A DNA stretch of 64,000 nt from Takakia lepidozioides (lineage: Eukaryota > Plantae > Bryophyta), in the NCBI GenBank assembly GCA_030704615.1, contig CM060734.1, positions 43,462,001 through 43,526,000 on the forward strand, read 5' to 3'. The position numbers were made by a program, and so were the translations under genes. Within the stretch, counting starts at the first letter, position 1. Each line of letters opens with the position of its first letter. Under the pieces are notes generated by a model, which made no database searches, was not told the origin of the DNA, and saw nothing but the letters and a program-made list of their open reading frames with translations. Below are positions 9,074-20,137 of the stretch, in pieces.

Positions 9074-10795
9074 TGTCATGGTTTTAGTCATGGTTATCTA
9101 GAATTACCTACTTCTAGTTAACTAGGACATTTTAGATATTTATATTTATATTTATATTTTGTGTGTTGGGACTTCATTTGGTCTCACATGCCAAGTGAGG
9201 TGTCGAGCCTCACTTGAGACATGGAGATAGGTTTTCCCCTTATGAGTGTTGAGGAGGCTCATCTTCTTGTAGTTGAGCCTCCATGAGCTTCTCTCACCTC
9301 CATAGCTCTAGGTATTGAGAGGGAGTGTGTTGAGGGCTTTGTAGGGTGGATTCCTTTAGCTTGGCTTGACTTAGTTTATGTGATAGAGTGGATTTCACTT
9401 GGAAGGACTAGGGCTTGTTCTTCATGTGATTGTTTCATGCTTTGAGAGCTTTCATTGTCTTCTACTTCTCTCATTTCTCATCTTTTATCACTACAAGAAG
9501 ATCACCTTATGCTTGTGAGTGCGGAGTGTAAGGATTAGTTTTGTACTTGTATTTTAAAGAGGTTGAGAGCTAGGAGAATTTAGCTCTTGTATCACAAGGC
9601 TTGCAAGGGGTTGCAAGGAAAGGTGCTCGAGTATTGCATGCACCAAGGAGTTGGAGAGCTTGAGAAGAAAGCTCTTGAGTCACAAGATTTTGCAAGGATT
9701 GTAAGGAAGAAGTCTTGTGTGGAAGCATGGATTCTAGGGTTTGAGAATCCTTTGTATGCATTATGGAGTCGATGGTGTGCGCCATGGCTTGTGGAGAGTG
9801 ACTAAAGGCTTGTTAGTGCTCATTTCACTATCAAGCTAGGGTTAAGCAAGTTCAAAGTGTGGATGTTGTGGAAGAGAAGCCAAGGAGCTATATATGCTTG
9901 GGCTTGAAGACAACAAGGGCAAGCACTTGGAGAGCACTAAGAAGCTCAAGAGGTTTTGAAAGGGAGCATGTGAAGAAATCTTCCAATCATGGTGGTGGAG
10001 CCAAGCTTAGGGTGCCATTGGAAGGGCTTGGAGAACATGTGGTGGGAAATCCTTGAAGGGAAATCATCATTCAATGTATGCATAGCTTCACCCTAACTAT
10101 GTAATGTGACAAGAGGGGGAGGCAATACTTGGCTATTCATGCTCTTGGTAGTGCGAGCTTTGTGGTGGATAGTTGACCAAGCAAGTGGTGCATGTGTGGA
10201 GCATGCTCGCTTGAGTTTGTAAGTTCAAGTTTGAGAAGGGGAGCTCTTGAACTAGCAAGAGGTGAAGGCCTTTGAGATCCATTTGTGTGTGAAGTGGAGA
10301 GGTGTTGATTCATGTTATGATGAAGGAGAGCAACACATAGGCCAAGAGGTCATGAAACATGCATTCAAATGACCACGGGAGCACATGGATGATGGATTGG
10401 TGCAAGACCCCAAATGAGGCATATGGCGTGAGAGTGGGATCCAAGGCGGATTGCTTGGGAGCATTATTGTAAGTGACAAGCATTGCTCCTACACATTGAG
10501 ATAATTTGTGTTGATTTGGAGCAATTGTCAAGTGATGAGGAGACAAATGCATGATTGCTCGGCAATGGAGATATGGTAGTTTGCAATCAAATCCCAAGGA
10601 CTAGAAGGGGGATTGATTTGGTGGACAATGACTTGCAAGTTGAGTTGGACCACTCTTGGTTGCACATTGGGGTGGAAGAGAGCAAGAAGATGCCTCTTAT
10701 GACCACCTAGAGACCATATTTTTGCTTGAGTAGAAGCATAGAAGTCAAGGACTTGCATTCTAGCTCTTCATTACAAACCCTAGTAGTGTATGCTC

Positions 10796-11190
10796 AGACT
10801 ATACCTCTGTTAGTATACCAAACAGGAGCTTGTCCCTTTGACTATACCTCTGTTGAGGTATCACCATATGTGAATCCTAATGTGAGACTATACCTCTGTT
10901 AGTATACCAAACAGGAGCTTGTCCATTTTACTATACCTCTATTGAGGTATCACCATATGTGAACCCTAATCAGCTCAGACTATACCTCTGTTAGTATACC
11001 AAACAGGAGCTTGTCCCTTTTACTATACCTCTGTTGAGGTATCACCATATGTGGACCCTAATCAGCTCAGACTATACCTCTGTTAGTATACCCAACAGAA
11101 CCCTCATTTTCAGACTATACCTCAGTAAAGGTATCATCAACATAAGGGACCCTAGCAACCTCAGACTATACCTCTGTTAAGGTATCAACA
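10796..11190 (+). repeat. Tandem repeat of ~90-bp units with ACTATACCTCTGTT subunits in the retroelement leader
   Basis: Units start near 10796, 10885, 10977, 11069; each contains the small hairpin ATACCTC-TGTT-GAGGTAT or a near variant. Confidence 0.9.
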
Positions 11191-11997
11191 GTGAAAGGAC
11201 TTAGTGAAATTTAAGGGCGTTTGGAGGATTGGAAGATATTTGAGGGCCCTTGGAGGAGTATTTGGAGGATCTTTGGGGTCCTTGGAGGAGTGTTTGGAGG
11301 ATCTTTGGGGTCCTTGGAGGACCCTTCGAGGAGCTTGGTGGACAATGTTGAAGAGCTCTTGAAGGATTGATTGAGGGATATTGAAGGATACTTGCCACGG
11401 CCATACAAGCGAGTGGATAGAGACAGGAGGGAGAGTGGTGGGATGAGAGCATTCTGGGGTTAGGAATTGCTTTAGTTTCTCTTCTCCATAGTCTTTCACC
11501 CTCTCTGTAGGCCAAAACCTTTCCGTAGGTGGAGGCAAGAGTCAGTCCGGGTTTGGGCTGGGGTGTCCTTGCAGGAGCGACACTGTGGAGTGTTTTTGGT
11601 GTGGGGGAGTTGTTGTCTTGATTTTCTTGTGTTTGGATCCCCTCCACACCTGCATGCTTGACTGTGCGCCATGTTAGCTTTGTGTGGGCGCTTGTTTTCA
11701 TAGGAGGTTGGTCCGGATTTGATCACCGGCCAATCCTAGAGTATGCTGTCGGTGGTGAGGCTGGAGTGATGACCAGCAAGACCACCAGTGTTTCTTCTAT
11801 GGTGAGGCTGGGTTGATGACCAGCAGACCATAGGAGTGCTTGCGGTGGATGCAGGTGCAGGTACAGGTCTACGTTAGAAACCTATTATTCCTGCTTGAAC
11901 CAGTAGCCGCAACAGGTTCTTTACCCGGTTACCTTGTAGAAAGTGGGGATTAGAGACAGGTTGACAACCGGTTGGGTTGTGAGTTTTCATCACGGAG

Positions 11998-19200: not shown

Positions 19201-19281
19201 GGTTGGCATATGGGATGCTTGACTCCACCTCTTGAGATGGTTCCTGATGGGGATTGGTTATGTCCGCATTGCATTGGATAG
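16278..19281 (+). pseudogene. Gypsy RT, RNase H, DDE integrase and C-terminal PHD finger
   Basis: [38 protein letters not shown]; integrase SLDFAGP / LTDQGREF / GLAER; C4HC3 finger CMLC..CDQC..WH..C..WLCPHC (19138-19275). Confidence 0.95.
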
Positions 19282-20137
19282 TGGGAGTGGATACAACCAT
19301 GGAAGGCTAACAAGGAATGCAAGGCCAAGCTACTAGGAGACCAACACACGAGATCCTGACTCAAGTTCACAGATTGCAAGACGGCAACTAACGATGGGGT
19401 TGCTCTTGTACCCGACCTCTTGGTCTATAGAGTTTGAGTACAATAGGGACAGTGATAGAGGACTTAGTACGGCTGTGGCTATTACATCTTGTAGCTATCT
19501 GGAGTTAGAGGGACCTCACCACCAGCTAGGGGGGCGATTGTGGTATAGCTTTCTAGGATTGTGTGCTTAGATAGTGTGGTGGACAGCGATGTATATTGTG
19601 GCACGATGCTTAGGTGCACGACAGCTGTCATGGTTTTAGTCATGGTTATCTAGAATACCTACTTCTAGTTAACTAGGACATTTTAGATATTTATATTTAT
19701 ATTTATATTTTGTGTGTTGGGACTTCATTTGGTCTCACATGCCAAGTGAGGTGTCGAGCCTCACTTGAGACATGGAGATAGGTTTTCCCCTTATGAGTGT
19801 TGAGGAGGCTCATCTTCTTGTAGTTGAGCCTCCATGAGCTTCTCTCACCTCCATAGCTCTAGGTATTGAGAGGGAGTGTGTTGAGGGCTTTGTAGGGTGG
19901 ATTCCTTTAGCAAAGGTGCCCTTGGCTTGACTTAGTTTATGTGATAGAGTGGATTTCACTTGGAAGGACTAGGGCTTGTTCTTCATGTGATTGCTTCATG
20001 CTTTGAGAGCTTTCATTGTCTTCTACTTCTCTCATTTCTCATCTCTTATCATTGTGGTATAGCTTTCTAGGATTGTGTGCTTAGATTGTGTGGTGGACAG
20101 CGATGTATGTTGTGGCACGATGCTTAGGTGCACGACA

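Follow-up and report, generated by a model that had tools for sequence, protein, structure and literature searches.

In retroelements bounded by long terminal repeats (LTRs), the ends made by reverse transcription are also the ends used by integrase, and circular forms are regarded as by-products (PMC7197481, PMC4372172; these and all other sources are cited for the parts of their text that were consulted). A different arrangement, in which split direct repeats follow the order A1-B1-A2-B2 and the internal junction equals the joined ends, is found in PAT, TOC, Kangaroo, Ngaro and VIPER (PMC4157794, PMC7192593). The element described here, at positions 9074-20137 of a 64,000-nucleotide (nt) stretch of Takakia lepidozioides (contig CM060734.1; hereafter the window, with positions counted from its first letter), carries split repeats of this kind. 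In contrast to the elements of that group, it shows no recombinase in the frames scanned and has a DDE integrase, a 4-bp target duplication, a Ty3-type reverse transcriptase (RT), a polypurine tract (PPT) and a primer-binding site (PBS); its methyltransferase is of the cytosine type, whereas that of the tyrosine-recombinase retroelements is of the adenine type. It is a Ty3/Gypsy variant with a probable internal attachment junction, and not a member of the look-alike recombinase groups.

The closest described element is KnitGypsy-Dnmt3 of Klebsormidium nitens, for which the legend to Fig. 4c gives a DIRS repeat structure, A-coding-B-A-B, together with Gypsy domains (de Mendoza et al., 2018; PMC5890265). 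It shares with the window element the Gypsy domains, a C5 methyltransferase within the polyprotein and the DIRS-like repeats; junction, duplication, primer, mechanism and PHD finger go unmentioned in the text and three supplement files of that paper (PMC5890265). A Klebsormidium RT (P0090, 51%), which may or may not be that of KnitGypsy-Dnmt3, fell outside the supported clade of the window element and was left unplaced by the tree, and none of the 52 matches in a length-limited search was named Klebsormidium. A 2026 preprint, in the part cited here, calls the group simply Gypsy-DNMT3. An earlier, sequence-only reading of the window knew of no description of the proposed replication route for Ty3/Gypsy. 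The layout is not new, given the KnitGypsy-Dnmt3 legend (PMC5890265); for the mechanism, the literature searched yielded no account of an internal attachment site (subscription journals and Repbase reports were outside its scope). With respect to priming, the nearest systems are Tf1, Tf2, Tj1 and the Tf1/sushi-Tcn1 chromoviruses, which likewise have no transfer RNA (tRNA) site and a PBS complementary to their own upstream LTR (PMC7175516, PMC4600332, PMC6317226), over 11 nt in Tf1 as against 13 or more here. All of these have two complete terminal LTRs and a chromodomain; the clade of the window element, on the other hand, has a PHD finger, a methyltransferase and, as proposed below, integration through an internal junction.

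The repeats and boundaries of the window element are as follows.

9070-9073, plus strand: left target site duplication, ACTC (flank comparison).
9074-9489, plus strand: A1, starting with the left integrase end TGTCATG (repeat alignment).
19528-19536, plus strand: polypurine tract AGGGGGG plus CG, abutting B1 (same position in all families).
19537-19623, plus strand: B1, finishing with the right integrase end CACGACA (repeat alignment).
19617-19632, no strand: internal junction CACGACA-GC-TGTCATG, proposed integrase cutting site.
19626-20050, plus strand: A2 (repeat alignment).
20050-20051, no strand: A2/B2 seam, proposed join of two ends of the complementary DNA (cDNA).
20051-20137, plus strand: B2, with which the element terminates at CACGACA (repeat alignment).
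20138-20141, plus strand: right target site duplication, ACTC (flank comparison).

The overall layout is A1...PPT-B1-GC-A2-B2 between two copies of ACTC. Over 416 aligned bases, A1 (9074-9490) and A2 (19626-20051) show 2 substitutions, to which two indels are added, one of 1 nt and one of 10 nt, and B1 (19537-19623) is identical to B2 (20051-20137) at 85 of 87 positions. The B1/A2 junction has a perfect 10-nt palindrome core, with one mismatched pair of eight across 16 nt, and the termini of the element coincide exactly with its TG and CA. The insertion lies in a minus-strand Copia element, inside its integrase, and because the flanks encode consecutive parts of the Copia integrase core, both element boundaries are independently fixed. 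The sequence-only reading had placed A alone at the left end and PPT-B1-GC-A2-B2 at the right, had equated the near-palindromic junction with the joined termini plus 2 nt, and had proposed a 4-bp target duplication; the repeat alignments and the ACTC copies interrupting the Copia integrase core agree with each of these. It was also right that a repeat B exists, though at 86 bp it fell short of the 87 nt obtained when the shared A at 20051 is counted. The Copia host is split into 7296-9073 and 20138-21925 (minus strand).

A DDE integrase, TG...CA ends and a short target duplication are traits shared with Ty3/Gypsy. Two complete terminal LTRs are not found, the B of the first repeat being located far to the right. 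Two more conventional ways of drawing the LTR were considered and rejected: A+B as an ordinary LTR has no PPT before A and no PBS after B, and B alone as a mini-LTR conflicts with left ends that are A.

Copies of the element were drawn from the window, from contigs of 4 public runs (3 samples) and from metagenome relatives, of which the best 80 of 490 were used. A second family member in the window (24606-28900, minus strand) is internally deleted and has the same PPT-B1-GC-A2-B2 right end (B1 25146-25060, B2 24692-24606), stopping at the same CA; its coding DNA is 69-77% identical to that of the first, and its left end was sought past a large insertion (44200-46700) and not found. In the read contigs, aligned to 19250-20050, the joint of A end to B start was found in 4 of 4 runs, and 31 contigs of run X1 (possibly the same sample as the window DNA) and 20 of run X4 depart from B at 19623 into dissimilar flanks (agreement 0.39-0.41). 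Left-end read support in the organism of the window amounts to one contig of run X7, and the left-end counts given below come from metagenome relatives. The metagenome relatives with the same layout have RT identities of 56-79%, and the layout-bearing loci fall across a supported 23-row clade (100/99) that contains Calypogeia and Marchantia proteins. The nearest named proteins are from liverworts (Calypogeia at 79%, and Marchantia), followed by Closterium, Klebsormidium and Volvox. Among viral contigs there was no relative; 77 stretches fitted the pattern and none was confirmed. Sub-families in the organism of the window have the PPT and the initial 6-7 bases of B in common and diverge thereafter (read ends behind 19542 and 19543). 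At one further locus (L058, 13238-13350), the RNase H region of one clade member is interrupted by the insertion of a second.

Readable B1 ends in the metagenome relatives comprised 35 rows, which merged by shared flanks to 26 sites. Eleven of these run through the junction into A (B2 visible in 9, one continuing into the PBS and one limited by its contig end), and the other 15 stop after B1 in unrelated DNA, giving an A...B form. Junction calls were corrected by eye for L035 and L068 (flanks) and for L050, L051 and L056 (decayed junctions). Left out of the right-end counts were L018 (end unclear), L030 and L034 (junction deleted), L031 (B1 lost), L032 (B broken by a further insertion), L057 (contig end) and any locus lacking B. 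At the left, all 20 independent ends (25 rows) begin at TG after unrelated DNA, and none of the 20 has B before A; had two full LTRs and a PBS been the rule in the family, the layout would have been a one-off, but the copies do not bear this out. The second window copy, the read contigs and the metagenome relatives agree that the layout is a family trait, as had been suspected: it is confirmed as real and family-wide, neither chance nor a one-off. A...B copies without A2-B2 are as frequent as full copies (L009, L011, L023, L035, L068, L070 and 9 more sites).

All 13 independent junctions, those of both window copies included, have a 2-nt spacer between B1 and A2, and its letters vary (GC in 6, AC in 3, AT in 2 and GT in 2). 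Copies with both ends readable, namely the window copy and 12 others, comprise 7 A...B-A-B sites and 6 A...B sites; all start at TG and stop at the CA of the junction sequence, and all 13 carry the 4-bp duplication (11 perfect, 2 at 3/4), as the sequence-only reading had expected. A 5-bp duplication never reads better than 2/5 in these copies, and the chance of a 4/4 flank match is about 0.005 per site. The spacer is absent from the inserted ends, i.e., it is lost at insertion.

Two further features bear on how the copied repeat is bounded.

9261-9273, plus strand: predicted self-primer, approximate RNA 5' end, within a GGCTCA/TGAGCC inverted repeat (exact complement of 9490-9502).
9490-9502, plus strand: primer-binding site, not tRNA-like, complementary to the self-primer (covaries in five families).

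In standard LTR reverse transcription, the positions of the PBS and the PPT set the cDNA ends. No tRNA-type TGG site follows A1. The earlier statement to this effect was correct, but a complementary, self-priming PBS is predicted at that very place: 9490-9502 is the exact reverse complement of 13 nt in A (9261-9273). A perfect primer match of 10-17 nt occurs at 10 of 21 left ends, a length reached in at most 1 of 200 control stretches. Five families differ in the letters concerned, and in each the PBS finds its best pairing partner in the A of that family; in the relatives, a TATA box stands 26-28 nt upstream of the primer. When the RNA is folded from 9261, primer and PBS pair with each other. 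Such complementarity is the signature of Tf1-type self-priming. In every family the PPT lies immediately 5' of B, and with the PPT before B and the PBS after A, the copied LTR would therefore run from the start of B to the end of A, as B-GC-A. We infer that B1 is the first part of U3, and that A1 comprises the promoter part of U3, R and U5. In four families (window 9253-9282; L016, L043 and L062), an inverted repeat surrounds or includes the predicted self-primer, and its left arm is located 5' of the predicted start. Such a structure could keep read-through RNA or the 3' repeat from priming.

If the copied LTR is B-GC-A, the A2/B2 seam is where two cDNA ends meet. The commonest seam joins the base preceding the PBS to the third base past the G run. 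In run X1 the A/B joint variants have no insert, T, AC or ACTA-type letters (12 of 15 rows listed); AC and the ACTA type correspond to the start of the PBS, over 2 and 4 letters, respectively. The seam of L031 has 10 PBS letters plus 5 of filler, and in that of L036 there are 17 nt of filler together with the CG lying next to the PPT. Seam length varies between copies, and the length of the B1/A2 junction is constant. Since PBS letters are found in the provirus only after A1, they would most simply have reached A2 as primer copies on a cDNA end, and PBS and PPT remnants at the ends of human immunodeficiency virus (HIV) cDNA are known (PMC2797772). In the window copies, B1 and B2 differ at 2 of 87 positions within each copy and at 4-7 of 87 between copies.

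These data make it probable that the copied LTR is B-GC-A, that its ends are joined and that integrase cuts at the internal CA-NN-TG, with the order of joining and cutting left about even. Transcription would begin inside A1 near 9261, and the first 13 nt of the RNA, complementary to the site after A1, would fold onto it and prime the minus strand as in Tf1. The plus strand would begin at the PPT, which directly precedes B1, so that the cDNA product would read B-GC-A-internal-PPT-B-GC-A. Its A end would be ligated to its B start, probably by host end-joining, creating the A2/B2 seam in its several variants. Integrase would open the molecule at the junction of the upstream repeat by cutting CA-GC-TG behind each CA, with a stagger of 2 nt, which would leave two CA-3' ends with 2-nt 5' overhangs, shaped like processed retroviral ends; strand transfer of these ends would yield the 4-bp duplication and lose the spacer, the termini and duplications being those found in the two-ended copies. 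The A...B copies would be dead ends, arising from one-LTR circles, from double cuts or by recombination. As the integrase substrate, a two-LTR circle is narrowly preferred over insertion before joining. A stretch of the intact relative L016 (8553-9317) reads PPT-B-GT-A-PBS-leader, and would fit a one-LTR circle, a linear or unintegrated cDNA, or an assembly path; it is not taken as evidence.

The enzymology proposed has parallels. The integrases of HIV and foamy virus can cut the palindromic LTR-LTR circle junction, giving CA-3' ends (PMC1905944; PMC4372172). Two-LTR circles are a back-up route in HIV-1 and foamy virus, and their junction is built from the cDNA ends (PMC1905944; PMC4372172; PMC1180852). 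In the clade of the window element, in contrast, the junction is encoded inside U3, apart from the cDNA ends, and is used by every two-ended copy examined. In bacterial circles of the IS3/IS30 type, a DDE enzyme opens abutted ends across a short fixed spacer; these are DNA transposons without reverse transcription, and their junction is made anew by the transposase.

Several observations weigh against the scheme of joined ends and internal cutting. Circles, cDNA, transcript ends and cleavage are all deduced from sequence. As to self-priming, the TATA box is degenerate in the family of the window element, 11 of 21 left ends (older copies) match the primer perfectly over 5-8 nt only, and 1 of the 10 good matches sits elsewhere in A. 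Two of the five family pairs combine a PBS and an A from different copies, and one pair (the fifth) is preferred by 0.4 kcal/mol only. The stability of the fold of 9261-9510 does not exceed that of shuffled sequence (z -0.79), and with 11 extra upstream bases the primer is closed off in a hairpin. Among the old metagenome copies, the closeness of B and A within a copy does not stand out (B, 7-10 versus 6-15 of 113), and the metagenome loci are assemblies from mostly one host type, i.e., non-independent lineages. Finally, the two junctions of a free circle are equal, so that a symmetric circle should also yield A-B-A...B copies, of which there are 0 among the 20 left ends. Their absence would also be explained by a biased cut or later recombination, and the A...B counts may be inflated by short-read collapse of A...B-A-B.

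This asymmetry is where an alternative without any circle does best. Integrase would insert the linear cDNA through its upstream junction, and the cDNA ends left free would afterwards be joined by the host, within the chromosome. Provirus and seam would come out the same, and the likelihood accorded to this order of events is half of that given above to joined ends and internal cutting, included in it and not additional to it. Were the cDNA inserted through its downstream junction, the break would carry 340-420 nt of homology in A and be repaired to A...B, which accounts better for the asymmetry and fits both the 0 of 20 A-B-A left ends and the 15 independent A...B right ends as against 11 with a junction; the seam filler of 5-17 nt also suits end repair of this sort. 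On the other hand, a chromosome break would have to be repaired at every insertion, no unjoined A2 end is seen among the loci, and annealing via B would also be possible.

A second alternative, considered unlikely, is copying as in PAT or Ngaro, whereby an RNA running from inside A1 to inside B2 would use the B1/A2 junction to template its missing ends, and integrase would trim 2 nt or cut a restored circle junction. The layout A1-B1-A2-B2 is that of PAT, Ngaro and VIPER (PMC4157794), and the 2-nt spacer equals the length trimmed by retroviral integrases. Such copying, however, gives no role to the conserved PPT before B1 or to the covarying PBS after A1, and it leaves the PBS and PPT letters at the A2/B2 seam unexplained, as the seam would be inherited unchanged. 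The likeness to PAT and Ngaro drawn in the sequence-only reading thus extends to the layout but not to the replication, since the PPT and the self-priming PBS place the cDNA ends at the start of B and the end of A; it would then be A2/B2, and not B1/A2, that is newly formed in each replication cycle. Far less credible is a tyrosine recombinase acting in trans, which would integrate a circle at the junction with the DDE integrase as a passenger. The layout is typical of recombinase elements, and the junction consists of short inverted repeats flanking a spacer, but 13 of 13 copies have a 4-bp duplication of unrelated sequence with the spacer lost at insertion, recombinase elements make no duplication (PMC4157794), and the intact relatives retain a full DDE integrase and have no recombinase. 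Least credible of all is that a normal two-LTR element was rearranged once or misassembled, as might be suspected from the decay of the window copy and the short-read origin of the relatives. This is contradicted by the presence of two copies in the window, by the seam, found in 4 of 4 runs (3 samples), by nine independent relatives with B-A-B right ends, by the exact duplications and by the report of this layout in Klebsormidium (PMC5890265).

Under joined ends and internal cutting, the clade separates its cDNA ends from its attachment site, the two lying 87 and 425 bases apart, and if this is true, a supposed retroviral dead-end step would be the normal insertion route here. More tentatively, and with somewhat worse than even chances, a Gypsy clade of bryophytes and green algae may have moved its attachment site into U3 and come to replicate obligatorily via an end-joined two-LTR circle opened by DDE integrase, with self-priming, a methyltransferase and a PHD reader. 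The separation of cDNA ends and attachment site would also show that split direct repeats arose again, by a route unrelated to tyrosine recombinases. The intact relatives (of the L016 and L024 type) and the 16-nt site make the use of an internal junction or circle as a normal substrate of DDE integrase testable. Programs that find LTRs likely miss or mis-bound the clade, because they require two terminal repeats.

The leader and coding region of the window element lie between A1 and the PPT.

10782-11188, plus strand: 92-nt units, about four in tandem, within the long 5' leader.
12181-13314, plus strand: gag-like frame with two CCHC-type knuckles and a stop inside at 12421 (tblastn to relatives).
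13365-16151, plus strand: linker, aspartyl protease (LDSG) and C5 cytosine methyltransferase across several frames, with a final in-frame TAG at 16149-16151, the next codon being CAA.
16221-17591, plus strand: reverse transcriptase and RNase H, Ty3-like, with stops at 16218 and 17589.
17592-19281, plus strand: integrase (H2C2, DDE core) and C-terminal PHD finger, with a stop at 18093 and a frame change near 18340.

The domain order is gag-PR-RT-RH-INT with a Ty3-type RT, whose best solved match is the Ty3 RT (E-value 1.5e-67), and the reading frames are broken by several stops and frame changes. The gag-like frame gave no Pfam match. The C5 methyltransferase (PF00145), which had gone unnoted in the sequence-only reading, is located between protease and RT; the rve core, H2C2 zinc finger and PHD were detected, and a chromodomain is absent. 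In the intact relatives (L016, L024), all three acidic residues of the integrase (D, D, E) are kept, and the integrase matches those of foamy virus and Ty3. No tyrosine recombinase family matched any frame scanned of the window element (29 of its 80 internal frames of at least 60 amino acids) or of the intact relatives (all 9 L016 frames of at least 120 amino acids); these family scans uphold the initial view that the element has a DDE integrase and no visible tyrosine recombinase. The spacing from the second D to E of the integrase is 35 positions, one under that of foamy virus (L016; window 18410-18530).

Across the clade, intact copies included, a single in-frame TAG followed by CAA or CAG divides gag-protease-methyltransferase from RT-RH-INT-PHD. 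It was seen in the window (16149-16157), in the second copy near 26150, and in L001, L002, L007, L009, L016, L018, L024, L043 and others. This TAG is present in 10 of 12 loci translated, the remaining two being out of frame. A narrow stop-context pattern search matched only 11 of 73 loci because the pattern was too strict and its window fixed. CAR-YYA is the context of plant virus read-through, and the conserved TAG with CAA or CAG is likely a programmed read-through site. Just 5' of gag, repeated TGCAGG motifs (window 11850-11865; L016 near 920-990) resemble the splice acceptors of a leader intron.

Elsewhere in the window, a 15.5-kb element at about 29220-44730, probably a DNA transposon, has terminal inverted repeats rich in CTCATG/CATGAG and internal inverted tandem repeats at 34100-35800 and 42140-42340. 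Its frames of 860, 453, 434 and 318 amino acids are without a Pfam match, and one has a SWIM-like CxCxxxxCxH stretch. Another kind of Gypsy element lies on the minus strand at about 45070-50450, with protease, RT, RNase H, integrase, SH3 and chromodomain, and the N-terminal part of a cytochrome P450 is encoded on the minus strand at 22419-22976.

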